A stretch of DNA of 63,930 nt, filler included, from Collodictyon triciliatum (Eukaryota), in assembly GCA_043381765.1 (NCBI GenBank). It is 5 parts of 5 records of this genome, joined end to end, with 100 filler letters (N's around TTAATTAATTAA, not from the genome) between each part and the next. Parts side by side here need not be neighbours in the genome. Positions count along the whole stretch, not along the records: positions 9,298 to 25,594 come from JBHJMP010000331.1; 4 more parts are not named here. One strand, written 5' to 3'. Positions 4,089 through 63,930 of this stretch are shown here, piece after piece. The notes beneath the pieces were generated by a model, which saw only the letters and a program-made list of their open reading frames with translations, made no database searches and had not been told where the DNA came from. How positions within the stretch are numbered: the first letter of the stretch is position 1; each line of letters opens with the position of its first letter. Position numbers and translations under genes: made by a program.

Positions 4089-7000
4089 TCACTTTGATGA
4101 GCCTGTTTTGCTCTTTTGATGGGTCATCGCCGGATGAGTTCCTCTGGAGTCCACAAAGCAGCGAAGCTGAATCCCAGACGTGGTCTTTGAATACTTTTTG
4201 GTGTCCACCTCTTCCACTTCACACACTTTGCAACTCTCTGCAATAGTTGACATATTTGGTTCAAAGTCAACGTAGCAGATAACATCATATCCTTTCACAG
4301 AGACAAAAGGGAAGATTTTCTCGCGGTTCCAGTCCACGCTCTTTGTCGGCATCTCCACGAAAAAGTGAGGCTCATCAGGCGACCTAACAGTGAACTTGAC
4401 GTTGTCAAACCTTGCAGAAACTTGGACAAATATCTCAAAGTTACTTTTTAGTAATATATCTGGTCGTTCTTCGCTCACTGGGCGCCAAACTTGAATCGCA
4501 CTAAATAAGAACAATATATATTTTTTTAATTGTTTGTTGCATGGAGCGAGAAGGCAGATTGTCATTAATAAAGTAGAAAAACTATCATAGAATGTACACT
4601 TGAATACACCCATGTTTTAAAACAGATACAGTCACATATTATGTGTGAAGCAATCAATAGGGAAAAAGTTGTTGAAATAGATTCTGTACATGTAAGCGAT
4701 ACGATTTCTTACCTATTAATTTTCTGGCACATAACCACGCCACTTTTTGCAATGCTTGCACAAAACAGACGACGAATGTCCGTAACATAATCCAAATCAA
4801 CGCCTGGATTCTCTGGCAGCTCGCTTGTAAAGCCAAGGGCAATATCGGAATCTAGAGAAACTTTGTGTACTTTGACTGAAAAACAGCAGCCGTCGTGCTT
4901 GTCCACATCAATCCATCTGCCGTATGCATCGCCAAACGAGCGAAAGCATTTCCCAATTGAATATGACCACGTCTTCAGCATTTCATCCTTCTTGGATGAA
5001 CCGTGCTTGTTATCCGGAGGTGCAATATGTATCGGGATAGGGACCTGTCCTACGGCAAGTGAATGCTTGTCGGGGTCGTGGAATCCACAGTATTTTCCAT
5101 CAAAGGATATTTTCGGGGTGTTGGGCCCCAGTTCTTGTCCATACGGCTTCATCTTGTTTGATAATATATTAGGTAGCGTCCGCTGAAAGCCTAGCTTTGT
5201 GGGTCGATCGCCAAGGTTCAGATAAACAACCCCGCCTCGTGATAGGACATGAACATACGGTTTGATTTCATTCTCTGGAGATATGCCTTCAATACCATAG
5301 TATATGACTCCGTTGAAGGAGTAAAATAATGTATAGTTTTGTCCCTGGCGAATGAGGCCAACTCCATGTACTTCGGTAGTACCGTGGCTCGTGTAATTAC
5401 CTATCTTTTCATTAGGTAATTTTTTTCGTTCATTAAGGTGTGAGGGATAATTTATCTTATTTTCTACTTTGATCGTACTAAATCCCATTTCAAAGCACGT
5501 GTTTGATAGGTTTTCTACTTCGAAATAGAAAAATCCGTCACTCTCCAATATTGTTTTGATATCTCCGTAATACTCAGGCTTTGTTTCGAGCATATTCTGA
5601 GTAAGAATGTCTTTGTTTTTACCGCCATAAATCTTTTTCACTTTCGATGGGTTGGATGATATAATAAAATAATGTCTCTGATTAGATTATATACCTTATA
5701 TAATAAATAAATGCACTTAGAAATATAAGATGGTTATAAGGCATCTATATATATATGAATCGATAATTGAATAACATATATAGGAGGGTTGATACCTTTC
5801 GAGACCTAAAAATAAAAAAAAATACTAAAATCAGATTTACTTAAGTTATTCAGAGGGTCTTGATACGAAACAAATAATACAATATTTCTTTGGATGAAAC
5901 CAAATTTACGGGTGAATACCATTCTATCTATTTTGATGTAATACACAGCCAAAAAGCACATGTACCACAGCGGTGCAAAAAGTAGAGTAGAGAGGGTCAT
6001 TCCATATCGATGCATATTTGCATAAAACTCATACAGCCTTAGCCAGAACGAGTTATGTTCGTCTTTAACCTATAAGGAGAATATGAGTGCTAAAGTGGGA
6101 TTAAAATTAACCGAACATAATTAAATAACACAGATACCTCATATATACCACTACTGAGCTCAGAAAAAGACCTATCATTTAATTTTCAATTTAATTGCCA
6201 TGATATAATAGATTGAATAACTCAAATCAGAATGACCTCGCATATGACATTTCAAATATATGATCTCATCTATATAGCAATGTGCAAAATTCATATATGT
6301 ATCTGACCCTTCTGCATCTTTGAATATAAATTGAATAACTTGGACGATAACTATATAATATAATTAAAGAAAATAAGCCACTTATTAAAGAAAAGTTTAG
6401 TTCTGCGTAATCACATATATGCATAGCAATCCAATTTATTGTGCGTAGACAAAAGTAAGAAAAAATACCGACAATTTTAACTAGGATGTAAAAATTTAAT
6501 TGTAAGTAAATACATTTACAATTTTCAACTCACTTGATAATACTCTTTTTAAAAAGCTCAAAATCATGACAAGGATTAGGACAAGAACGGCCAAAATAAC
6601 GCCAAATATTATACCAACCAACGAAGTGATGAGGTCGACCCAAGAAGTGTATATTCTGACCCCATACAAGTCTGTTCTATTGAAGAAATGGTCATATGGT
6701 ATCAACTTGTTTTTGAAAAAAGACCAAGGGTCCATAGAGTTATCGTATTCCAAGTTTGTCCAGCACTCTCTCCTCTCAAATGTGCCCCATCTCAAAGGTT
6801 TCTGAAGGTATTTTCTGTAAAAACGAATGTAACAGGCTTTCAGAAATCGGTAAATAGGACGGAGGCAAAGCAGCAAGTTAATGGGTGCATGAAGTGCATC
6901 TTCCTGCATTTCCAATACAAGCTCGCAGAAAATAAGTTGGTATTCCTTCTTTGAGTCCTCGAATATTTCTTCGTATCTTTTGGTCAGGACAGCAATCAAA

Positions 7001-9068
7001 AGATTCAAAATTAATATATTGAGCATCGCGAGGTACATAAAATAAAAGAATGGACCAGCAGAGTCACTATTTTCATATATTGGATTGAGATCCAGCTCTC
7101 CAAACAAAAAAGTTGCAAAACTAAACACAACATCCTTTCCTGTCGAGAACTCAACTACATCTCGCCCAACGAGCACAAATATCGCAGAACCGAATCCGGC
7201 GACGAATATAGTCATCAACACCAAGAATACCACCATTTCTCCGAGGACATGAAACATCACGGTCAACATGATGCCAAACTTTTCGATGACCTGCAAGAAG
7301 TACAAAGTTCTTATCCATGAGAAGAAAATGAGAACGCTCAGAAAGTGTTGCTTTATGTAATCGTAGCGAACAATTTTGTGATAAGATGCCGAGTTCACAT
7401 CAGATACAACATCACCTCTAAAGTACTCGGAGGCGACATAATCTATGTAAATATGCATTCCTATCGTCAAAAAGAGTGTCAAGATGATAATCCAATCGAT
7501 AAGGTTCCACAAAGAGCTGACATAGACGCTGTCTTCCTCAGAGGCTTGGTCTAATTCATGCACAAAGAAACCGAAAGCATAAACCAAAAGAGCTATTTCG
7601 ATGATAAAAAACCAATTGTCTGTATTTCCGTAAATAGTTCTGTTGATGGTGAAAACTTTTGTGGTGACTACATGAGAGCCAGATGCGGGATATTCTATCA
7701 ACTGAATTAGATACGCCATCAAATTGGCATTGTCTCCAGAAATCAAGGCTTGTAAGAAAATGACTCGGGATTGTGAATCCACCCATCCATTTTCTTCGAG
7801 ATATTGGACTCGCTTGATTGCCTCTGTCTTGTTCGAATAGATATCCTGAACGAACCCGCCACCGTAATATTGAATGCGAAGATTGCCTGTTATTCCAAAG
7901 TCATTTGTTTCATGTTCACTCTTCCACTTAAATATTTCCTTGGATCCATAGTCATCATAATCAAGGTTTGCGTCATTATATGAAAGAGAGCATTTCTTCG
8001 GGACATTGGCCTGTTGTTCGTTAAAAAAGGGAGGACTATGGTCCCCACACTTTGTTAGCTTTGTTCGATGTTGTCTCAGCCGGATAGGAGATGCTAGACG
8101 ATAGTATGATAAAATTTCACCCTCACTCCGAGCTTGAGAAAGGTTTCCTTGCGCAAACCATCCTTCATATGCAAGAGGAATGAACGTGTTTTCCACATAG
8201 TTGAAGAAGCCAGCAGATACTCCACTTACATCCTTTGTGAAAGTGTCTTTTAAAGTTTTTGCAAAGTAAACTGAAGAATTATAATCCACGATATTTTGAT
8301 TTATTGTGTAATAGACTAATATAGTCAGGTAAATTGCAAATAAGAAAAAGTATCCGACAAAGTTGCCTCGAGGGGTTTGAGCATTTGGTATCAATCCTCT
8401 AAAAAATGTGACTACAAGGAATAGTTGTCGGTCAAAAACTTTAAAATTAAAAGGCCGCTTCTTCCTGTATTTGTCACTTTTCTGATTTGAATCATCTGAT
8501 GGGTCATCTTGGCCACCTTCTATAAGATCAATACGGTTTTTTTCAGGCGGATCCTGCTCCGAAATATGTTCTGAGGTCTCTTTGTTTGACTGCCCTTTCC
8601 TTTTGACATTTGCCATGCGTTTTTCATGACGAGTATTGACCAATCTCGTGCCAGGGCCCAAGTAAACTTTGTTTCGCTGTATTGTTTCTGAAGTCGAATT
8701 GAGCCATATACTTTCCACTTTTTTGGAAACAATAGGTTGGGACAAAAAGTATTTAGCCTTCGCTACCCTGCCCAAGGTAATATACTTTCCAGGAACCTCA
8801 TAGCTGCCGCGGTGTGTCTCTGAAACTTCAGCCTCCTTTCCTATTAATATCATCGCGTAGTAGTCATACATGATTGGCAAGCAAGGGTCTTTAGTGCCAT
8901 CCTTGCGTAATTTAGCTAGGAATGCCAAAAGTCTTTCTATGGGGTCACCTTGATGATTTTCATTAGTCACCATATTAATCAGGGTTGAACCCAGCTGCCC
9001 GCATAATGTATTGTCCTCTAGTTTGAATTTCTTCAAACATTTTAACGAAAATATTTCAGGTGGCAGAG
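4089..9068 (-). CDS. Polycystin-2/PKD2-like (TRPP) cation channel with N-terminal LRR remnant, extra hydrophobic segments and C-terminal SPRY-like domains; 5' partial
   Basis: Exons 9068-6520, 6069-5920, 5677-4713 and 4500-4089 join in frame with GT-AG sites (about 1358 aa). Polycystin TOP domain motifs (PIRLRQHR..C, YYGGGFVQDI, LEENGWVDSQSRVIF), six-TM core and pore (FLFGELD..GPFFYFMY..LILNLLIAVL). SPRY-like motifs FFYFEVE..FEMGFST..GVGL..LFYSFNG..KPYV..VYLNLGDRP. The exon starts with LPPEIFSLKCLKKFKLEDNTL. The channel call is firm; the join to the SPRY exons is inferred. Confidence 0.75.
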
Positions 9069-9069
9069 C

Positions 9070-9113
<44 letters not shown>

Positions 9114-9197
9114 AAAAGAAAAGAAAAAAAAAAGAAAAAGAAAGGAAAAAGAAATGAAAAAGAAATGAAAAAGAAAGGAAAAAGAAATGAAAAAGAA

Positions 9198-11149: not shown

Positions 11150-14100
11150 ATGCCAATCGACTCAAAACCAGCTGTAGTGCTTCTTTTTCTTTGCGGTAAA
11201 TATTCTAACAAATTATTTTTTTCTTGACAGATTTACTGTTTAAAAATACGGGTATGTTCTTTTAATTTCTTTTTCCTTCAATTACTGAATACCTATTAAA
11301 AATATAGGACTTACAATACTCAACAGCATTAGCTTGGCGAAAGGAGATGATTTTTTGATCAAAAATATGATTGACAAAGATTATTCAAACAGTTTTAATA
11401 GCGTTTGTGTTACTTTGGATGGATCTAAAGTTGTCTCAGGAAATGGTGATGGTAGTATTATTGTAATGAACCTTTCTAACGGTGCTGTGATTGAAAAAAT
11501 CTCAGGACATGACGGGTTTATCAATAGTGTTGCTGTTACTTTAGATGGATCGAAAATTATATCTTGTGGTTTAGATGGAACTATAAAAATCTGGAATTTT
11601 CTGGATGGGTCTCTTGTCCATAAACTAAACGATTTTTCAACTATCGGTATTTCTATCACACCGAATAATTCCATGATTATATCTTGGGGCGGCAATCAAA
11701 TCAAGTGTTGGGATATTACAGAAGGAAATCTTGTTCTTGAATTTACCGACTATAATGATACCGTTTTATGTGCCACAGTTACTCCTGATGGGTCGAACAT
11801 TATTTCTGCTGGGTTTGGCTACAACAGCGCCATCAATATATGGGAAATTGAGACGGGAATAAAGATAAAATCATGGAATTCCTATTCAGATACCATTAAC
11901 TGTATTACAATTACCCCAGATGGCCAGAAAGTGATCTCCGGTGACGATATAGGCTTGATTAAAATTTGGGATTTTATCGAAGGAGTTCTGATAAAAGAGG
12001 TTTACTCCAGCAATGGTGCTGTTATCTGCATTGCTATCACTCTTGATGGTAAAAAGATTATATCTGGAAGCTATTATAGTACAATAGATATTACAAATAT
12101 ATCCAATGGAACTGTAATAAATACACTAAAGGGACACTCTAGCTTCGTTAACAGTGTTGCTGTAACACCTGATAGTTCTGAATTAGTCTCAGGAAGCAAC
12201 GACGCTTCTATTAAAGTATGGGATATTCAAACAGGGACCATTATAAGAACATTTGGCTATGAAAACTGTCATGCTTATGCGATGGCTATCTCTCTTGATA
12301 GTCTACTAGTTATATCTGGGAGTAGTGATAATAAAATAAGAATATGGGACACATTCTTTCAATCTATTGAAAAATCATATTTTGGCCATACAGGCCCTAT
12401 AAGGAGCATTTCTATTACCTCAGATAAAATGTATGTAGTATCGGGAGGTGATGACCACATAATTAATGTTTGGAGACTTTCCGATTACATTTTGATTCGT
12501 ACACTTTTAGGTCATAAAAAAGCTGTGATAAGTGTCTCAGTGACCCCAGATAATTCAAAAATTATTTCAGGGAGTGATGACAATACGATAAAGGTCTGGA
12601 GTCTTTCTTCTGGGACCTTGACACGCACATTATCAGGCCATAAAAGTTCTGTTAGAAGTGTGGCCACTTCATTTGATGGTTTGCATATTGTGTCCGGGAG
12701 CAACGACCACACAATAAAAATATGGCGCATCTCTGATGGTAAAATAATACGCTCCGTGGTCGGCCATACAGACGCTGTAATAGTTGTCAAAACAACACCA
12801 GATAATTCAAAAATCGTTTCTGGAAGTGCAGATAATACAATTAAAGTATGGAGCCTTTTTCATGGCAGTTTGATAAGGACACTACGTGGGCATGTAAAAT
12901 TAGTTAACTCAATTGTGATTACTCCCGATGTTTCTGGAATCATATCGGCCAGTGACGATGGCACAATCAAATTATGGAGTTTTTCCGACGAAGAATACTC
13001 CAAAACAATACATAGCACTTCAGGACCAGTTATGAGTCTTGCCATCGCTCATGATGGATTAAAAGTGTATTCTGATGGTGCTGACGCAAAAATACAAGTA
13101 TGGAATCCATGTATTGGCGGTTTGTATAACTCTTTTTACAAATCATGTACTCCATGCCCAAAAGGCACCTATAGCTCTGGATTCAGTAGGAACTGCACCT
13201 TATGTCCTTCTGGAACCTACAATCCTGCATCTGGTCAGTCGTCCTGCCTGGAATGCGGCTCTGGTTCAACAAATGATATGAAAGGTTCTACAAGTATAAA
13301 TGGTTGCAAGTGCCTTCGAACCACATATTTGGATGTGCTGTCAAAGTCTTGTAGGGATTGTCCAAAAGGATTCATCTGTGACGGAAGCAGTCAAATTTCT
13401 ACTGCTCCTGGATTTTGGAGGGTCCCAACTCTAGGAAATGAGTATATCTCACAAGAATGTCTCAATAAAGTTGCTTGTCCAGGAATGAATGAAACCTGTG
13501 GGAGTGGATACACGGGACCATTGTGTGGTGCATGTGAGGAAGGATTTGGAAAAACAGGTGTTTTTTGTTCCAAGTGTCCAAAAGAAGCCTTCAACATAAT
13601 CTTGTTGATACTAGGTACATTACTTCCTCTATCCTTTGCCTTTTTCATGATAGAACAATCAAGGCAACCCAAAACTGGGAATATTCAAATACTTAAAACA
13701 CTTTCGACCCACTACCAAGTTCTATCATATTTGGCCAACTTTGATGTAAATTGGGGGTCCACAATAACTTCGATTATGAAAATTCCCGCTTTATTTTCGT
13801 TCTCCTTAACGGTGGACAGTTATCCGGTAGACTGTCAATTCCTTTTAAGTGTTTACGAAAAGGCTCTCTACACGATGATTAGTCCGCTCATACTTCTAGC
13901 GGTCGTCCTTCTTATCATTTTATTTAAAAAATCTTGGATGCTATATAAAAAAGATATTGCCCCGGAGAATATAAAATTTGATCAAATCAAGCAAGAAATC
14001 ACATATTCCATGTTGGTGTTGCTATTTTTCGTGCACCTATCGATTACTTCAACGATATCACCCATATTTCCCTGTGAAAGAATTGGAAATGAGAGTTTTT

Positions 14101-14783
14101 TGAAAGCAAACTTGTTGATATCGTGCGATGATGATAACTACATTTATTGGAGGAATGTTAGCATCGTTTTTTTAATTATCTATTGTTTGGGTCTCCCATT
14201 TTATTACTCCTAAGGATTATCCAGAAAAGAAAAGCACTAATGAATCCTACATCGAGAACATATGCTCTGATGAGATTTCTTGTTAATGGTTACAATGACC
14301 AGTATCCTTTCTGGGAAGTCGTCACCATGATACAAAAGTTGGTGATTGTTCTTATCAGCACCTTCTTCTCTGCATCCATGCAAATTTACTTTGGTTCTTT
14401 ATTGCTATTCATTGTGATAGGTTCAACAATTTACCTCAATCCCTTTATGTCTAATGTGCTGAAAATGTCACAATTGCAGTCTCTCATAGTACTATACTTT
14501 ACAATAATGGTCAGCCTATTGTTCCGTTATAGTAACTTGAGTGAAGTGAGTAAAACAGTATTGATTTTTTTGATTTTTTTTGGCCAACGGTGCAATTGGA
14601 GCTAGCTTTCTTTCAAGAGCAGGTCCATACTTGGTTAGGATTGCATTAAAAAGAATTGTTGGCATGGCTGAGTTTTTATTCGAACTTCTCTCTGCTATCT
14701 GCTTTGTTCCTCTCTTATCGAGGAAAGAGTCCTGGAAAAAAGGGACAGACAAGGAGATGGACGATTTTTCAACTTCTAAATAA
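11150..14783 (+). CDS. Signal peptide + 14 WD40 repeats + Cys-rich (ephrin-receptor/TNFR-like) stalk + multi-pass membrane domain; two single-base frameshifts in the 3' part (error or pseudogene)
   Basis: ATG 11150, exon 1 11150-11195, main exon from 11308 (MPIDSKPAVVLLFLC-GLTILNSISLA). Fourteen WD40 units at about 11380-13106; CTPCPKGTYS..CTLCPSGTYNPASGQSSCLECGSG; CGSGYTGPLCGACEEGFG; several hydrophobic helices. The ORF continues after frameshifts near 14197 and 14578 (FLVNGYNDQYPFWEVVTMIQKL). Confidence 0.8.
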
Positions 14784-15533
14784 CAGGAATGTTGATTTAA
14801 AAATAACAAGAAATCTCTTGTTTTTTGAGCCATCGGCATTAAGTTTGATAATCGCCAAACTTGATGCGTCATTTACAGAATTGAAATAAAAATAAAAATT
14901 GAATGAATTAAAGAAAATGGGGAGCCTATATATTATAAATTCAATATATATGTATTAAGGCAAACTGCTGAATTCGATTGCTGAAATGTAATTTAACACA
15001 GATAAATCCACGCACATGAAATATTTTCTTCTTCCATTGGGAGAGTGAAGAAAGAACTATGAATGGGTTTAATTGATTTTAAAGCTTTTTTTTTTAGAAA
15101 AAAAAATCTGCCCATCTTTACATTTACTTGAAGTTTGTTCCACTCCTCTTTCAGAAGAAAATAAAGTCTCATTATCTGTTTCATAATTTCAATCACTTGA
15201 CTTTCATAGGTAAGGGCACATATTTATAGTGCCTCAGTTTTTCTTGTTGGTTTGCAAAGTTCGATGTTGCTGCTTCAAAAGTTGTTTAAACCGATCAAGT
15301 AGCTAACACTACCTAATCAAAGAGAGAGAGGCCACTGGCTTTCGATCTGCGACCCTGACCGCTCCTGAAGAAAAACCCTCCCAAGAGCTCGACTACCAGG
15401 TTTTCAACCAAGAACAAAATATCGGAAAGTATCNNNNNNNNNNNNNNNNNNNNNNNNNNNNNNNNNNNNNNNNNNNNNNNNNNNNNNNNNNNNNNNNNNN
15501 NNNNNNNNNNNNNNNNNNNNNNNNNNNNNNNNN

Positions 15534-15641
15534 CCATAAAATACCATAAAATACCATAAAATACCATAAAATACCATAAAATACCATAAAATACCATAAA
15601 ATACCATAAAATACCATAAAATACCATAAAATACCATAAAA
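15534..15641. repeat. 10-bp tandem repeat (ATACCATAAA)n
   Basis: About 11 perfect copies next to an N gap. Confidence 0.95.
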
Positions 15642-15673
15642 TATGATGAATAAATCAGGAATCCGATTTACAG

Positions 15674-18600
15674 GACTTCCATTCGACTCGAAGAAATATC
15701 GCTTTTTACGGATATTTTCCTGCGAAGGAGGCGATTACTGTATTTCTACTAATTGCCTCGCTTTTTACAATAGTGGGAACTGTGAAAAGGTGCGCATTTC
15801 TATATCAAAGATGAAAATATAGTACTAACACATTCAAAAAAGAGTTAGTATGAAGGATGCCTGCTCCTATTCTCAAGAAGACCTCCTTTCCATGGAGAGA
15901 GACCATGCCTTTCGCATTCTACTTGATTATCACGAAGAAATATGTATGCTGAACGACTATGACCCTCCAATCTACAAATGGCGTGATGAAAAGAATACGC
16001 ATGATGGTATTTCTAGGAATACAAATGAGAATTTGGGTGAGCGATGATTTTTGTAAGAATATGAAGAAATTCAAGGATATGCACCAAAAATTTTATAATA
16101 TTTTGAAATATATAAATCAAATACCCAAATAGCTGAAAATCAGTATAATCTATTGGTCCAACTATATACTGACTTCAACGGAGATAACTGGAAGAATAAT
16201 AGTAACTGGAAAAATAATAATATTCCAACATGTTCCTGGTTTGGAGTGAAATGTGATTATTCATGCTCAAATGCTCAAGCGCAGGTTGTTTAATAGTCTT
16301 ATAGGAAAAATTATTGGATTTATTACTCACCACCCGTATCAATCAGAATCAAAGCTGTCCTGTTGTCGAATTGAACTTGACCAGCAACAACCTTTTTGGA
16401 GATTTTTCAGATTCATACAGAATTCTCGAGCGTCTTCCTCTTGACATTCTAAATTTTCAGGACAATACCATATTTGGTACTCTCCCTGACTTAAAGATGT
16501 CAAATTTAATGACACTCAATCTTGGCAACAACTTATTAACGGGTAATGCTTAAATTCCATTATATTCTGTTTTCAATTTTATTACAAAACATAAAAAATG
16601 CTATCAGAGCCAGCAGGCTAAGAAATCACATGTTGCTTCGTTGAGGACCAACTTTCAGTTTTTTGAAAATAGGGACAATCCCAAATTTCTCTCATATGGA
16701 ACGGCTGTCAGAGTTATTGCTTTCTGAGAACCAACTGCGCGGTACCAATATATTTGCTTTTTAATTAATATCCTATCAGAGACAAATTTTTACAAACAAA
16801 GACGAAGGGCTACACATTGTAATGATTTATTTTAGGCACCATTCCAAATTTCAATAACATGCCACTCCTGAAAAAGATTTCCCTGTCAAAAAATCGAATA
16901 TCAGGTAAAAAAAAAACCAAAGCGACTATTATTTAATATGCTGGCTAATATATCAGTGTGAGTATATTTCTTAAAATCGCACAGGAACTTTGCCTGATTT
17001 CGACTTCATTCCGGATTTGACTGATTTCGAATGCACTGAAAACCAATTGAATGGTGAGTAGATTCCTTATCCTTCAAATTTTCGTGTATTTGAGCTTATA
17101 TTCTTGACTTTTTTTTTTTTAACATTTTCACCTCATCTAGGTACGATACCGAATTTTCGAAGCATTCCATCGGTCACTAAAATACTCTTATCTTACAATA
17201 GATTGACAGGTTAATCAATATTTGTTAATGATAACTTTTTTTTATTGAGAAGAGAGGAGAAACAAGGACTGGAACTATCATATCCAACTTATTGAAGCAA
17301 GAATGATATTATCGTCACCGTTGTTAAAAATTCATCATATTGCTCGTCTCATAAATTGCTCTCTGACTTTTGAATATTGATGATATTTGAATTTCCTAGG
17401 AAGCATCCCAGACTTTTCGAAGATTCCGATATTGAATATACTAACATTAGATGTAAATCAATTAACAGGTGACACAAATGCATATCAGTAAATTAATTTT
17501 CCTTTTTTTTTTTTAAAAAAAAAAAGTGCTCATCAATTAATCATTGATTTGAATATCTCTTTGTAATTTTTGCTGATAAATATTTTAATTTCAACCTAAG
17601 TGAAATTTACGTAAATATTCTAGGGAAAATACCTAATTTTAAAAATGTAAAAAATCTATGGGAGTTGAATTTGAACAGCAACATATTTAACGGTCAGTTG
17701 TAATGCCAGTATCTAATCAGTTGCGAGCCACTTTTCCTCTTTTTTTTTCTGGAATTTTTCATTTAGCGGCATGATTGATGAAGTTTTAAGATCTATCAAA
17801 ATTTGTCTAGGTGGTGTTCCTAACTTTTCAAACATAAACGGTATGAAGTATCTATATCTTTACGGAAATGAGCTAACAGGTTTGGTGCCATCTTACTCCA
17901 GAAACAAAGACAGATTTATGCCGTTATCGTTAATTCTAGTTTTTATATCATTCGGACTGGGTAAGTTATCTCTCTCTTTTTTTCCATTTATTCGTCTCTT
18001 GTTTTTCCGAAAAAGGTACCATTCCGTGTTGGGACAAAATGCCGTGGTCGATTTATATATCACTTTCCAGTAACCTGTTGAATGGTACTTTTCCTCACAC
18101 TTTTATGGCCTCAATTTTTCTATTATTTCTTTTAGTACTTAATTGATTATTTGTGCTCATTAATAAGGGACAATACCAAATTTTGACTGCAATCCATTGA
18201 TCGGATACATTTTTTTGTATGACAATAGGCTGGAGGGTAATGATTGGGAATGTTATTCTAGAACAAATCATCGTTGGAATTAAAAAGTGCATTCAGTCAA
18301 TATTTTCACTTCCCTATATATTTCGGCTGAATTTAGGAACAATTCCGGACTTTGGAAATATTCCAAAGCTTATACTTTTTTCTGCACATAGCAATATGCT
18401 GAGTGGTAAGATTTCGAAATAAGTACCTCAAGTAATTCACCAGCTTCTGAAAATATTGGAATATTATTCCGAGAGTTTTGATAATAATTAATAGTATTAA
18501 ATCAGGGTCACTTCCCGATTTTAAGGATGTTAGCATGTCTTCTATAATTCTCCTTCATTCAAATGAGATTAATGGTGCAGTTTTTTAAAATATTATTCAG

Positions 18601-21582
18601 ACAACAAGACTCATTAACCATCCTTTGTAATTTTTTTTCGAAAAAATATCAGTCCTGTAAATAAATACTTTCTTTAACCACAGGAACAATACCAAATTTC
18701 AAAAATACACCGATACTGAAAATTCTGAATTTATCAAACAACAATATTTCAGGTATTTTATTCATTTGAAATAGTTGATTTGTCACACATTCACAGAAGA
18801 ATGATTCTAAAAAATAACTCTGTGACAGGAGAAATCATCGATTTTAGTAATTTAGGGTATCTCGAAATACTCGATATATCTGGAAACAACATCACTGGTT
18901 TGGTTTTATTTTTTCAATTTGTAGTTTTGAGTTGGAACGTATGACCTTCTGTTGCCACTTGCTCACCCGTCTTCTTTATTTTAATTGGAGCAATACATAT
19001 GCACTCGCTCTGTAGGAACGATACCGCTTTTTAAAAACCTCACAAGGGTGAAATCTCTTTCCTCGTATGACAACAAACTCTCTGGAAGCCTTCCTAGTTT
19101 TTCAAGTTGTCCCATCATTGAAGAAATAATTGTATTCCAAAACAAACTCAACGGAACTTTACCTTCATTCGATTTATTAAAACTTAAAAGAATCGATTTG
19201 AGCCAAAATAAGATAGCAGGATTTATACCACCCTCCTGGAAGCTAGGTTCAATCCAAAAGATAGATTTATCGATGAACTACCTGTCCGGCTCTATTCCCA
19301 AATATTTTGAACAATTATATCAGTTGAAATCACTTGTCTTGTCACACAACCAGTTTGAAGGAAGCATGCCAGCCAAGTTTTGGGGTCTTCAGTACCTTGT
19401 ATCCGTTGACCTTCGCAATAATTCCTTTTTTGGAGATATTGGAGTATTTCTTACTCCAACTTTCTCCAATAGTGGTGTAAACTACGCCTATGATACTTTA
19501 TTACTTGATGATAATGAATTATATGGAGAGTTAAACTGGAGGATATTTGATTATATCAATAATGTGAAAATTTTGAGTTTAAGGAACAACAAAATCGACA
19601 GTTTAGGAGAAGTGACAAGTCTGATGAAATGGATTCGATTTGATGTCTCTGGAAATCCGATAGTGGGAAGCATACCTGATTCCTATCAAAGATTTATAAA
19701 GCTGGACTATTTTGGACTGAAGGATACTCTTATGAATCATTACTCATCAAACTTTATTCCTAGTTACATGAGATATAAAGAGCCATTCAATTTAGAGGAC
19801 AATTTTGATTCATACATTTGCCCTTCAATAATCTCAGTCACAGACTTGGTTGAAACCGAAGTCAGTATAAATCCTGGGTACTATGATTATGTGTTTTGCC
19901 AATGTCTTCCTACTTACTTTGGTTTCGGCAACAATTGTATTCGATGTCCACGAGGATGTGAGTGTACAGATGGGCTATCCCTTGTAGGATGTCACGTATC
20001 TCCCAGCGTGATTGAGCCTAATGACATTACACCCTGCCCTTTTGCACCTGCTTGCGAGACAATCATTGAAGACAAAACATCTTATACTAATCACACGCCG
20101 AGAATAAGCACACAATGTGCTCAAGGTTACGAACAGCGTGCTTGCTCCAAATGCAAGAATGGATACGGAAGGAGAGGGAGAGCATGCTTTGAATGTCATG
20201 AATCCACGATTCATGTGACTCTTACTCTGAGTTTAATTTGCATCATACTATTCATTTCATTCTTATATTTCAAGGAGGTATCACAATCAGGTATACTTTT
20301 TTACATATATTTGCAGGTTTTTTTTTATTTTTAGAATTCTACAAGATAAGATTATTCGCTTACAACTACATCTTGAAAAAGGAAAGCTGCGCATCGTAAT
20401 GTTTCATGTTCAAACACTCTCTGTTATTTCATCTGGGATATTCGAGTCTGATGCATCAAACAATTTCTTTGGATTTTTGTCTTCTTTAAGTTCCATACAG
20501 TTTCCCAATCTGTCATGTGTCTTAGGGCAGTACAATATGCTATACATATTGCTTTTTAGTTATTCCAGAATTCCCATCATATCGTTCGTGGGATATGTTG
20601 TGTATAAATATAGTCGAGGACATATGCATAACAAGGTAGGCAGTTTGATTTTTTTATTCAATTCCTTTGACTTTTGAATTAATGATGCATTGGTAATCAC
20701 AGGCTGTTTTTATCACCATAAGTCTGCTTCTCTATATTTATTATTCGGTTGCAACTGATGTTTTCGGAGTTTTCGGATGCACATTATATGATGGCGGGGA
20801 TGAATCCTGGTATCTTAATTATGCACCTTGGGTAAAATGTAGCCCCGCGTCCTCTGAATACAGAGCATTACTTGGAATTACGCTTCCCGTTTTCTTTTTA
20901 TTTTTGATAGGATTCCCTGTCTTTGTTTGGCGCAAGGTGAAAATTATGGTTAAAAAACATGGATATGAGCCAGAGGCACGCTACGGATTCATGTATCTAC
21001 CATATAAAGAGGTACCCTTGGTTATCCAGATTGTGTATTTTACTGTAAGAATTTGCATAAAATTTTTAGATGTTTAGTTTATGTTGTAATCTTAGAGCTA
21101 TCGGTACTGGGACTTTGTGATTGTTTGTCGAAGAATTGCATTTTCGTTCATCACTAGTGTCATTCCCTACACGCATCCATCGGCATATTTTGTCTTGTTG
21201 GTGATTGTTATACAAGTAAGAATAATATCATCGTATGTAAAGCACAGTTTGCGTCTGCTTACATTTGTTCTAATTGAAAACTTGATAGACATCCATATGG
21301 ATTCACATGAAAGTGCAGCCTTATAAAACAAGGCTGGAAAACCAAATGGAACTCTCCAGCCTTTATCTTATTTTCATCTCTTTCTTTCTTCTTCTTTTAT
21401 CAACACTCTTTGGCTCAGAAACATGGATTACCGTTCTTTTAATACTTTTGAACACCTTTTGGCTTATCTGTGTAACCACTGTGGCTTTTCTTATTCCATT
21501 TTGGACTGGGTTTTCATTCAAGCGATACCTGTTTGAAATGGCAGTCTTAAAGCGAGGAAATCGAGACCATTTCTTGTCGTGA
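15674..21582 (+). CDS. LRR receptor-like protein: hydrophobic leader, LRR N-cap, plant-type LRRs, Cys-rich stalk, multi-pass membrane domain; start codon not resolved
   Basis: N-cap LVQLYTDFNGDNWKNNSNW..TCSWFGVKC; 13 exons of 69 nt between 16673 and 18897; large exon 19016-20290 with more LRRs and CQCLPTYFGFGNNCIRCPRGCEC..CAQGYEQRACSKCKNGYG; TM exons 20382-20635, 20703-21011, 21096-21215 and 21289-21582 (ARYGFMYLPYKE-SYRYWDFVIVCRR). All joins are in frame with GT-AG. Confidence 0.88.
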
Positions 21583-23423: not shown

Positions 23424-25425
23424 ATGGAGGAAGGAAACATCACTGTTGCGGTTCGTGTGCGGCCACTCGGAACTACGGAACGCATTCGCGGTGATCGCAT
23501 TTGTACAATCGCAGGAAAGTCAAGAAACAGCGTTGTCCTGCAGGGAGTCGAGTCCAAGGACGATCAGGTTTGTTCATTTGTATATGCATTTATATCTTTT
23601 TTATATGCATATTTACCGATTATTTGATGATTTTTGTTATTTTTTAAATTATTTGTTGGATTAATTGTATTAATTGATATTTTGGTTCATTTAGATAATT
23701 TGTTAATTGATTTTTTGGTTATATACTTCTTTGTGTATATTTGTTTATTTCGCAATGTTGACTTATCCATGCTGACGTTCGTGCTGTCTAGGAGTCTGAG
23801 TTCCCTGTCGATTTTACTTTTTGGCCTGATGATGGCAACGAGCTTTTCTTTGAAAAAATAGGTCGTGAGATCTTGAAGAATGCATGGTCTGGTTATAACA
23901 GCACAGTGTTTGCATGTGAGTCATATTCCTACAAACGATCTCTTTTGATATCACAGATCGATTCAGCGTTTCTTTTTTTTTTATTTTATTTGTTTATTTC
24001 TTTTGTCCGCGCTTTATCAGATGGACAGACTGGAAGTGGAAAGACACACACGATGATGGGCTCGTATCATGATGCAGTTAATTTCACCTCATTTACTGGG
24101 GAACGAAGAAATTATTTATTTTGTTACATATTCCGATTCTAGACCATTATTTATGTGTCAAAACAATTAGCAGACCATTCGCTCACTTCGAATTGTTTCG
24201 GGCTTCGTAGGGATTGATTCCCAGATTGTCAGAGGCTCTTTTTGCGGAGGTAGAGACAAAAGGAAAACGCGTCGATATTCTTGTAAATTATGTTGAAATC
24301 TATGGGACACAGGAAAAATTGTCCGATTTGCTCTCTGAAAAGGAAGCGCCTCTTCGTGTCAAACAAAACAAAGATGGAGGGTTTGGATATCACACCCATC
24401 TCACAGTCCCTTTTATCAAGTTATAATGCATCGGAACCAAAACAGCGCTTCATTTTTCTTTGAACACAACACAATACCTCTGGTTATCGGGGCAGTAGGA
24501 TGAAAAAAAAAACAATCACATAAAATGCTATTGACGTACAGATTCTATGTCGACGGATTGACGAGTTACAAAATCACGTGCCCACAAGATATGGAGCTAT
24601 TTATTCGTGCCGGAAACCAACGGAGAGCCACCGCCGGGACCGAGATGAATCAACAAAGTTCACGCTCTCATGCGATTTTCTCTGTCATATTTTCACAAGT
24701 GATGGGTGATGAGGCACGATAACTATCTTTCTTTTCATCTATTTAATTTTTTTTTAAAGGCCTGTTGCCGATTGAAATTCAGAAAATGAACACAATTTTA
24801 TTGCAAAATACTTTTGTGTTTCGATAAATTCATGTTTTTTTTTTTTTTTACATACACCTGGAATGATGCAGATGATAATTTGACTGATTCTTAAGAATAA
24901 CAGTCACTAATATTCAGCCACAATAATGCCATCACTTTTCTAACAATCAGCATCATTCGACTGTAGGAAAACGGAGAACATAAACTCGTGCTCAATTCTG
25001 GAAGAAACAAGTATGGGTCAGCCCGAAGAACGAGTCAAATCAAGTTGGTTGATTTGGCTGGAAGTGAAAAACTCGATAAAAGCAAAGCAACTGGACAAAG
25101 GTCAGCGGGAAGACGAAAGTCATACATTTTTTTCGTTTCTTTCTGAACCAATAAAAGCAACGTCTCGGATTGCTTTCTTACTGTTCTTTTTTAAGGGACC
25201 CATAAGTTTTTTTTCTTTATTCGATTCAAAGGAGCTAGAAATAAAAATCTTCAATGAATTGTAGTTGATGAAGATACTTAAAAATTCACTAAGTGACATA
25301 ATCAAACTAAATGAACACACAAAGACAAGTCGAGGCCTCTGCAATTAATTCGGCGCTAACGACCCTTCGACGAGTTTTGAATGCTCTGATTGAAAAAACG
25401 GCACACATTCCATTTCGAGATTCGG
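23424..25425 (+). CDS. Kinesin motor domain protein, kinesin-3-like; 3' truncated at the contig end
   Basis: Seven exons give [36 protein letters not shown] (P-loop), GLIPRLSEALF, YVEIY, MNQQSSRSHAIF (switch I), IKLVDLAGSE (switch II) and HIPFRDS. Confidence 0.9.
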
Positions 25426-27665: not shown

Positions 27666-27749
27666 AATTTATTTTTACATTATCTCTATTTTAACCCATT
27701 ATCTTAATATTTTTTTGTTCCGTCAAATCCTTCACTTTTAGAGAATAAC

Positions 27750-43750
<16,001 letters not shown>

Positions 43751-52500: not shown

Positions 52501-53074
52501 AGACATAAAAATTAGAGCTGTTTCACCCCAGCGCAGTATGTACGGAAATGCCTGGAAGGTTCTGAAATACTTTATAAACGACGACGCAAATGAAAGGTGT
52601 TTACACTGGCCTGCATTGTCGGCTACAACAGCATCTGGTCCGTTGCCCCTGCTCTCCACACGCCGCTGATGAGCGCCAGCAATGCAATCTCTGGAGTTGT
52701 CATCTTGGGAGGAATCGTGCAGGTTGATGGCGAGTTGGACACAGCCACACTGATTCTCTCTGCCCTTGCAGTCCTTGTAGCCTCTGTCAACGTTTGCGGT
52801 GGCTTCTGGGTCACACACCGCATGCTCAACATGTTCATCATCGAGGAGCCCGCAAAGGTAATCCCCATCATTCAAAGATTTCTTTCCTTCTACACACATA
52901 TATGTGTATTTAGTTTTCCTCTATCCTCTATTGCACACTCACTCTACATGATTTCTTTACACACAATTATGGTTTGTATTGAATTACTCGCAGGCCACAA
53001 CTTGACTTTTTTTTTCTCGTACTTTTCTTACTCAATCGTAGAAGGATGGTGGATATGAGCGAGTCCGCGATTAA
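45313..53074 (+). CDS. NNT: Proton-translocating NAD(P) transhydrogenase, single-chain beta-alpha fusion, about 26 exons, 5' partial
   Basis: Beta membrane part ([65 protein letters not shown]), then dIII ([40 protein letters not shown]), a Gly/Ala linker, dI ([24 protein letters not shown]) and alpha TM ([27 protein letters not shown]). Confidence 0.95.
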
Positions 53075-63482: not shown

Positions 63483-63930
63483 CTACAGTCCCGACTCCTT
63501 GAGCTGGGCGAGAATCGCCTGGGCGTCCTCTTCCCCAAGCCGGCCAGCCGTGTCCATCAGCCGAGCCGCCTTCTCAGCGTCCTGCGCAACTCCGAGACCG
63601 CGCGAATGCAGCAGACTCGCGGCAACCAAGCATCCGATGTGCTCCTTGGCGACTCCGCGTTCGAGCATCTGTGCAGCCCGCGCCGGGTCCGCCTCAACGC
63701 CAACGCCGCCAAGCAGGCAAAGGGCGTACTGGAAGAGACCCTCCACATCGCCGTCATCGTGCGCAGACTGGTAGAGACGGGCAGCCTCCTCCGCGTTCTT
63801 CTCCACCCCGAGTCCGTGGCGGTAACAGTTTGCAAGGTTGATTCGGGCGTCATTGTCGCCGTGCTCTGCGGCCTTTGCGTACCACTTTGCAGCCTCCGTG
63901 TAGTCCTGCACAACGCCGTTCCCGCTCTCG
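63483..63930 (-). CDS. Sel1-like repeat protein, 3' end (runs off the window)
   Basis: GNGVVQDYTEAAKWYAKAAEHGDNDARINLANCYRHGLGVEKNAEEAARLYQSA..GVGVEADPARAAQMLERG: canonical Sel1 repeats in GC-rich sequence. Confidence 0.9.
   Translation of the reverse strand, partial: ESGNGVVQDYTEAAKWYAKAAEHGDNDARINLANCYRHGLGVEKNAEEAARLYQSAHDDGDVEGLFQYALCLLGGVGVEADPARAAQMLERGVAKEHIGCLVAASLLHSRGLGVAQDAEKAARLMDTAGRLGEEDAQAILAQLKESGL

Follow-up and report, generated by a model that had tools for sequence, protein, structure and literature searches.

Two receptor-like genes on one contig of Collodictyon triciliatum

We analysed a stretch of 63,930 nucleotides, filler included, from the genome assembly of the protist Collodictyon triciliatum (GCA_043381765.1); this whole stretch, hereafter the window, is AT-rich scaffold sequence of eukaryotic type, whose introns are short and of the GT-AG class and which contains simple repeats and gaps of 100 N. 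Two genes in it, both on contig JBHJMP010000331.1 (C331), are the subject of this report: gene A and gene B encode proteins in which a large head, built of WD40 repeats in A and of leucine-rich repeats (LRRs) in B, precedes a cysteine-rich region and a multi-pass membrane core. An earlier note on this DNA had described them as a tandem pair of receptors with one shared membrane module and interchangeable heads, spanning the ATG at 11150 to the last stop at 21580-21582 and parted by one internal N gap (15434-15533); these limits proved correct, as did the placement of both genes on a single contig. The C-terminal motifs listed in that note were likewise found in both genes and in the order given: CxxGYxxxxCxxCxxG(F/Y)GxxGxxCxxC ahead of a membrane helix, then HYQVLS (A) or HVQTLS (B), IFPC..L....ISC or VFGC..L....VKC, LGLP or IGFP, FLVNGY...FWEVVTMIQK or FMYLPY...YWDFVIVCRR, NPF or QPY, and a last helix with a conserved Asn. 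Pfam searches found no kinase or other cytosolic enzyme domain in the pieces scanned, and the exons of gene B upstream of 18985 read as LRRs by eye. The notion of a receptor family in which very different recognition-type heads share one membrane module is upheld, and the features on which it stands are collected in Table 1.

Gene A is interrupted by a single inferred intron (11196-11307, phase 1, GT-AG) inside the signal-peptide region, and its architecture recurs in paralogues, among which L041 has a DUF7630 module (PF24633) that passes the cut-off. Gene B ends with the stop at 21580-21582 and its spliced exons contain no internal stop; after the N gap, no start codon can be made out for it. 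The exon model is supported by a transcript-derived protein of Diphylleia rotans (P0194), which aligns with gene B at 32% identity over 1,146 residues and is colinear across the core junctions. The cysteine repeats of gene B are DUF7630-like only and fall below the cut-off, and those of paralogues such as the ones on contigs C901, C1388 and C862 lie above it.

The N-terminal part of gene B also holds a small Cys-helix-Cys module (15849-16036), followed by a variable linker and the LRR cap. Members of the B clade and P0194 have this conserved module in common, and it matched no Pfam family. By analogy with Toxoplasma CRMPa, which is reported to undergo N-terminal processing (PMC9670195), this module could be a cleaved pro-domain.

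Table 1. Features of genes A and B and of the gap between them (positions in the window)
Feature	Position	Strand	Basis or remark
Gene A, WD40-headed CRMP-type protein	11150..14783	+	~1,173 aa with X at two frame breaks; ATG 11150, stop 14781-14783
Predicted signal peptide of gene A, intron-split	11150..11345	+	hydropathy peak at residues 8-26; paralogue leaders similarly hydrophobic
~14 WD40 blades of gene A, as two seven-bladed propellers	11394..13121	+	PF00400 E 3.5e-81; 42-residue spacing; a profile scored 13 blades
Short cysteine-rich stalk (Ephrin_rec_like/GCC2-3) and DUF7630-like module, gene A	13110..13580	+	PF07699 E 1.7e-11; PF24633 E 0.0017, below cut-off
Predicted nine-helix membrane core, gene A	13596..14612	+	AlphaFold2 of paralogue L041; homology to Plasmodium CRMP2; followed by cytosolic tail of ~55 aa
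Frame break 1, gene A (~14201)	14198..14204	+	one base short in a T run; outside the environmental contigs shown
Frame break 2, gene A	14574..14581	+	one surplus T in an eight-T run
Terminal part of an interspersed repeat, extending into the N gap	15274..15433		outside both genes; >=40 genome matches (best 40 of 57 candidates scored)
100-N gap followed by a 10-bp repeat in 11 copies	15434..15643		probably hides the first exon of gene B; no in-frame ATG ahead of its hydrophobic leader
Gene B, LRR-headed CRMP-type protein	15659..21582	+	>=22 exons, 1,271-codon open frame; introns all GT-AG; model begins without a start codon
Small conserved Cys-helix-Cys module, variable linker, LRR N-cap, first LRRs	15849..16542	+	kept in B paralogues and P0194
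13 exons, each exactly 69 nt, phase 1-1, one 23-residue LRR apiece	16673..18897	+	exon model of gene B
Long exon: more LRRs, cysteine-rich region with DUF7630-like module (~20110-20196), membrane helix 1	19016..20290	+	LRR_1 E 6.7e-16; PF24633 E 0.006, below cut-off
Four exons: predicted helices 2-9 of gene B core and short tail	20382..21582	+	exon model, alignment to gene A, profile comparison

The shared membrane core is homologous to that of cysteine repeat modular proteins

The C-terminal regions of A and B align significantly, as the earlier note had expected, with 93 of 368 columns identical (25%; BLASTP E 1.8e-11; phmmer E 3.9e-12). Their local alignment score of 191 compares with 42+/-6 in 500 global shuffles (maximum 75) and with 58+/-13 in 500 shuffles confined to 10-residue windows (maximum 124). 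Profiles of the A and B families matched each other at an HHalign probability of 99.7% (E 1.4e-25). An AlphaFold2 model of an intact paralogue of gene A (L041) shows nine long helices with a predicted local distance difference test score (pLDDT) of 90 and a predicted template-modelling score (pTM) of 0.86; for gene B the count of nine rests on alignment and hydropathy. The hydrophobic leader, the cysteine and sequon content and the odd number of helices together predict an N-terminus outside the cell and a cytosolic C-terminus, with tails of ~25-55 residues. Foldseek matched the L041 model to no solved structure.

Searched among 1.84 billion representatives, a profile of the A cores recovered 14,665 protein clusters at E <= 0.001. 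A second profile search matched cysteine repeat modular protein 2 (CRMP2) of Plasmodium vinckei (E 6.3e-92), and an alignment in which 16 A paralogues were mixed with 63 outside homologues matched CRMP2 at an HHalign probability of 100% (E 1.8e-40) over 488 columns that span the Ephrin_rec_like repeats, DUF7630 and all helices. The match does not depend on the outside sequences, as profiles from the A cores alone and from the B cores alone of this genome also found CRMP2 (E 9.5e-12 and 5.7e-13, respectively, in the protein set of this analysis) and a single A sequence aligned with it at 22% identity (E 8e-9). The core keeps polar residues and motifs in common with CRMP2, which served as the only CRMP in these comparisons, CRMPB-clade sequences being absent from them. 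We conclude from the sequence comparisons that the core of A and B is homologous to the CRMP core. The core is therefore not new, and the condition that the earlier note had set against its own reading, membership in an already characterised family, applies in part.

That note had further suggested a core like that of G protein-coupled receptors (GPCRs) or of transient receptor potential (TRP) channels. The L041 model has nine helices, and no match of its fold to either was found. A six-helix TRP/polycystin channel was rejected on the helix number and on the lack of any PF08016 or PF00520 match in A or B; the neighbouring PKD2 gene (6496-9195) does give a match, and the A and B family profiles give no score on it. 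A seven-helix GPCR was likewise rejected on the nine helices of the L041 model.

WD40 and LRR genes form two expanded, separate clades

The core of A is found at no fewer than 89 loci in this genome (148 matches, with 150 scored of 196 candidates), a lower bound reached after split pieces had been merged and four short rows, together with the weak rows matching only cysteines (B genes), removed. A single exon of B gave 134 matches, corresponding, after three split pieces were merged, to at least 131 loci, again a lower bound. Matches to DUF7630 lie almost all on contigs with A or B loci. Sequences were fetched for 58 of the 88 remaining A loci and for 40 of the 130 remaining B loci. In 45 A paralogues the core could be located by pattern: WD40 blades lie upstream of it in 31, a further 13 leave the fetched stretch inside the stalk, and one is a headless fragment. 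Where the sequence reaches far enough upstream (25 paralogues), blades number 4-24 per paralogue, with seven in 13 cases, and the stalks contain from 1 to >130 Cys repeats. All but two of the 40 B paralogues carry LRRs, those two being cut by contig ends, and B loci have 0-18 of the 69-nt exons. No head type besides WD40 (A) and LRR (B) was found among the fetched paralogues.

The headless A-type fragment (L035, 1-2200) comprises a core and a few Cys repeats, with unrelated non-coding DNA upstream. Four further paralogues (L039, L041, L045 and L052) show frame changes inside a stalk of near-identical Cys repeats, either assembly slips or repeat instability.

In a tree of the cores, all 26 A sequences and all 34 B sequences fall in separate groups with full support, with the caveat that the outside sequences had been gathered with the A profile and the B cores pieced together with gene B as guide. 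A second, quick tree, which held no CRMPB-clade sequence, reproduced this split, placed P0194 inside B and left CRMP2 on a long branch grouping with neither A nor B. Going by these sequence trees, this genome shows no swapping of heads: its WD40 and LRR genes are separate deep clades, of which gene A is one ordinary member and gene B another. The proposed interchangeability of heads thus fails here, where head type tracks core clade, and stands across eukaryotes, where one core carries many head types (RCC1, FG-GAP, PQQ, Kelch, lactonase, LRR, beta-helix, TIG and OpuAC) and an LRR-bearing Rigifila protein is nested in the tree among RCC1-headed ones. Neither combination is peculiar to Collodictyon, since WD40 heads occur on the core in Tetrahymena (P0172, with P0173 a further Tetrahymena case among the WD40 and LRR combinations) and LRR heads in Diphylleia (P0194). 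Nor are A and B a tandem pair, as they are not duplicates of each other. Both types occur together on only two contigs, on one of them 43 kb apart, and one close A-B pair was seen where 0.8-2.5 are expected by chance; the two genes are probably neighbours by chance.

Some homologues outside this genome (P0095, P0115 and P0150) join the core to an OpuAC substrate-binding domain, to a lactonase propeller with CBM1 or to LNR repeats, and because of these heads some members of the core family may sense small molecules.

The binding faces of the heads diversify

Rates of change in the WD40 heads were estimated from 157 repeats matching a pattern with a fixed length of 30 residues and taken from 37 genes, with repeats paired by framework identity alone. 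At positions 5, 7 and 23, which we take to be the top-face binding positions, the ratio of nonsynonymous to synonymous substitution rates (dN/dS) was 1.56 (interval 1.17-2.12), 2.08, 2.06 and 3.16 (1.89-5.44) in four pairings of 24-45 pairs; uncorrected ratios were 1.32-2.22, and the lower bounds all exceeded 1. The same ratio was 0.35-0.41 at bottom-face positions and 0.12 in the membrane core (10 pairs). The six fastest WD40 positions (3, 4, 5, 7, 23 and 25) have the spacing of the positions under selection in HET-E (10, 11, 12, 14, 30 and 32; PMC12222747). The LRR comparison drew on 262 exons from 35 genes; change on the concave face outpaces that on the convex face by a factor of 2.1-2.8, with synonymous sites near saturation. 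Judged by these substitution patterns, the binding faces of the heads diversify.

Candidate function: CRMP-type contact sensors

Published work describes CRMPs as proteins that cross the membrane nine times, with the N-terminus outside the cell and the C-terminus in the cytosol, and that Toxoplasma needs for rhoptry discharge and Tetrahymena for mucocyst discharge (PMC9670195, PMC9815656). With sequence, model and analogy to these proteins taken together, we hold it moderately probable that A and B are CRMP-type contact sensors: their variable heads would recognise other cells, and this would set off secretion or feeding. The WD40 double propeller of A or the LRR array of B, held out on its stalk, would bind other cells; binding at the head would be relayed through the constrained nine-helix core, with no enzyme domain taking part; and the output, by analogy with alveolate CRMPs, would be regulated exocytosis or engulfment. 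The ligand is most likely the surface of prey or of other non-self cells. Diphylleia is a predator. Recognition of prey is the role we favour because of this way of life and because the nearest named proteins come from Diphylleia, Rigifila and Mantamonas (CRuMs).

Several points weigh against this proposal. Neither the A nor the B clade groups with CRMP2 in the tree, where CRMP2 sits on a long branch. The tails of ~25-55 residues are far shorter than the 478-565 residues of Toxoplasma CRMPs (PMC9815656), so the downstream link may differ, and Sparvoli et al. take the exocytic machinery to be specific to alveolates (PMC9670195). The WD40 dN/dS values come from only 157 fixed-pattern repeats, whose pairs share ancestry and are not fully independent, and the per-position values had been seen before the test positions were fixed; for the concave face of the LRRs dN/dS is 0.73-1.31, with intervals that include 1. 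Finally, gene A has two frame breaks, and its own blades are not homogenised (DNA identity median 49%, maximum 73%), some WD40 repeats of paralogues being more alike than these.

Other accounts of the core and heads can be set against the same observations. The core might itself let calcium through under force, as a conduit like those of fungal FLC/Pkd2 (PF06011), with the long heads as tethers that pull it open on contact, an account to which we give a minor but appreciable chance. Five homologues show weak PF06011 matches (three in a set of 14 outside proteins, two in a set of 39), the best of them (E 1.4e-6, profile positions 148-415 of 426) reaching 27.9 bits against a cut-off of 28.5, and PF06011 is present in 12-24% of language-model neighbours; moreover, predictions give fission yeast Pkd2 nine helices and an extracellular N-terminal domain (10.1101/2022.08.11.503631), and it is reported to pass calcium under stretch (PMC9727806). 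However, PF06011 never exceeded the cut-off, with no match among the window pieces and none in 38 homologues at E <= 1e-4, and the ML-like domain (PF14558) was not found in the window pieces or homologues scanned. The membership of Pkd2 in PF06011, too, is taken from PMC9600462 and general background, and we found no account of channel activity in the CRMP literature consulted. Such a conduit is compatible with a contact sensor, as it would name the relay, for which an FLC/Pkd2-like calcium conduit is the leading candidate. Coupling of the core to heterotrimeric G proteins, as a divergent receptor resembling adhesion GPCRs, is highly improbable. The genome does contain G-alpha genes (28 matches on about ten contigs), and CRMPa has been termed GPCR-like by prediction (PMC9670195); yet the same source holds that CRMPs are not bona fide GPCRs, the helices number nine rather than seven, no seven-helix Pfam family matched the window pieces or homologues, and the GPCR rows returned by Foldseek had E > 0.1 and TM-scores <= 0.2.

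The proteins could also serve as a variable coat at the cell surface or as a layer of decoys to viruses, parasites or predators, with a core that anchors and does not signal. Large dispersed families, stalks of such unequal length, diversifying outer faces and short tails would all suit a coat, but the strong constraint on the core and the polar residues and motifs that it has in common with CRMP2 exceed the needs of an anchor, and selection on the top face of the propeller that spares the bottom face is the pattern of a binder; we regard a coat as improbable. A separate doubt concerns gene A itself, which might be a dead copy through true frameshifts, leaving the pair as such without function in a family that is functional. 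Its two breaks lie <400 bp apart, the core frame is unbroken in 51 of the 58 fetched A paralogues (in three it is cut by contig ends, in three broken inside, and one was missed by the pattern), a nearby dynein frame of 10.9 kb is unbroken, and one headless fragment (L035) is known. Against this, both breaks sit in T homopolymers, the 974-codon frame upstream of them contains no stop, and the surplus T at 14574 is missing from one environmental contig, single and of depth 2, that shows no other difference over 151 nt. We consider a dead copy unlikely, if far from negligible, and assembly error the likelier source of the breaks, probably so for break 2.

A bolder extension of the contact-sensor proposal concerns pairing. 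CRMPA and CRMPB of Toxoplasma form a complex that has been modelled as a heterodimer of cores (PMC9815656), and the two clades of similar size found here recall that arrangement. It is conceivable, although we would give it a small chance only, that the WD40 and LRR clades are obligate partners of this kind, their cores pairing to give a combinatorial repertoire of two-headed receptors (~90 x 130) in a single-celled predator, and that CRMPs and fungal FLC/Pkd2 proteins belong to a single ancient superfamily of calcium sensors, gated by contact or force, with nine helices and an unsolved fold.

Relation to known systems

CRMPs (Plasmodium CRMP1-4, Toxoplasma CRMPa/CRMPb, Tetrahymena CRMP1/2; PMC9670195, PMC9815656) have the same succession of Ephrin_rec_like repeats, DUF7630 and nine helices as A and B, and as described there a large extracellular part and no enzyme domain. 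A and B differ in occurring outside alveolates; in bearing WD40 or LRR heads in place of the Kringle, MAR or lectin domains reported for CRMPs (no Kringle or MAR match was obtained by Pfam in the window pieces of A and B); in their very short tails, against one of ~500 residues in CRMPA/CRMPB; and in existing as hundreds of copies with diversifying binding faces. Fungal FLC and fission yeast Pkd2 resemble A and B in their predicted nine helices, their N-out/C-in orientation and their extracellular N-terminal domain, with a weak sequence link that runs through homologues only (sub-cut-off PF06011). They are distinguished from A and B by the repeat heads and cysteine stalk of the latter, which have no ML-like domain.

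For the heads, the closest parallels lie elsewhere. The WD40 sensors of the HET-D/HET-E NOD-like receptors of Podospora (PMC12222747) are, like the head of A, double propellers with variable positions at the same spacing, and diversifying selection of the HET-E type at the top face recurs in the A family (dN/dS > 1 in 4 of 4 pairings). A is, however, predicted to be extracellular and membrane-bound, without NACHT or a death effector, and HET-E-type genes have the high identity between repeats within one gene that gene A lacks. The ROCO and LRR-kinase genes of Ectocarpus (PMC3341825) resemble B in having one LRR per same-phase exon, a variable number of exons and faster change on the concave face. 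Their exons measure 72 nt against 69 nt here, and the LRRs of B are predicted to be extracellular and sit on a CRMP core in place of a GTPase or kinase. The likeness is one of exon layout and rate of change, and does not as yet take in exon shuffling or positive selection.

The core, and the idea of expanded CRMPs that sense the environment, are already published: expansions in Chromera and Paramecium are described and Dictyostelium homologues mentioned in PMC9815656. Beyond that mention we found no publication on the CRMP-core family outside alveolates in a search that did not include CRuMs taxon names, and the supplements of the CRMP papers may list more members from non-alveolates. What is new is the repertoire, namely two expansions with variable WD40 or LRR heads and a WD40 top-face dN/dS of 1.6-3.2. 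A core in 14,665 clusters, together with these expansions, suggests an old, general eukaryotic receptor platform bearing immune-like repertoires, and it raises two questions for the CRMP field: how general two-clade heterodimers are, and whether the core is a calcium conduit of the FLC/Pkd2 type.

Other features of the window

The interspersed repeat that runs into the N gap between the genes recurs with its first 50 bp as exact inverted pairs ~2.7 kb apart, sometimes two per contig (L117, 14-2658; L118, 7-2744 and 5052-7753). No clear transposase frame was found between these pairs in L117 and L118, and the repeat is possibly a family of non-autonomous DNA transposons. An environmental contig extends 664 letters past its aligned part at the left edge of the gap; this, together with the interspersed repeat that ends at that edge, makes it probable that the gap exceeds 100 bases. 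Nearly all N gaps in the window are flanked by differing simple repeats of ~100 bp, which are also common in introns, and the contig breaks are driven by repeats. The environmental contigs that partly match the window DNA are recorded as freshwater or subsurface metagenomes.

Across a masked gap from gene A, and divergent from it, lies an intronless-looking polycystin-2-type channel gene (6496-9195, minus strand; PKD_channel E 1e-20, with Polycystin_dom). The genome contains 43 PKD_channel matches, ~31 of them full length, a large polycystin expansion for a protist. An axonemal dynein heavy chain, read from the translation, occupies 27708-43750 on the plus strand with an unbroken frame of 3,625 codons (10.9 kb), and its presence shows the organism to be flagellated. 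A kinesin motor exon (23792-24139, plus strand), a segment of transhydrogenase PNTB (52594-53055, plus strand) and, at the window end, a GC-rich frame of Sel1 repeats (63486-63929, minus strand) were also recognised.

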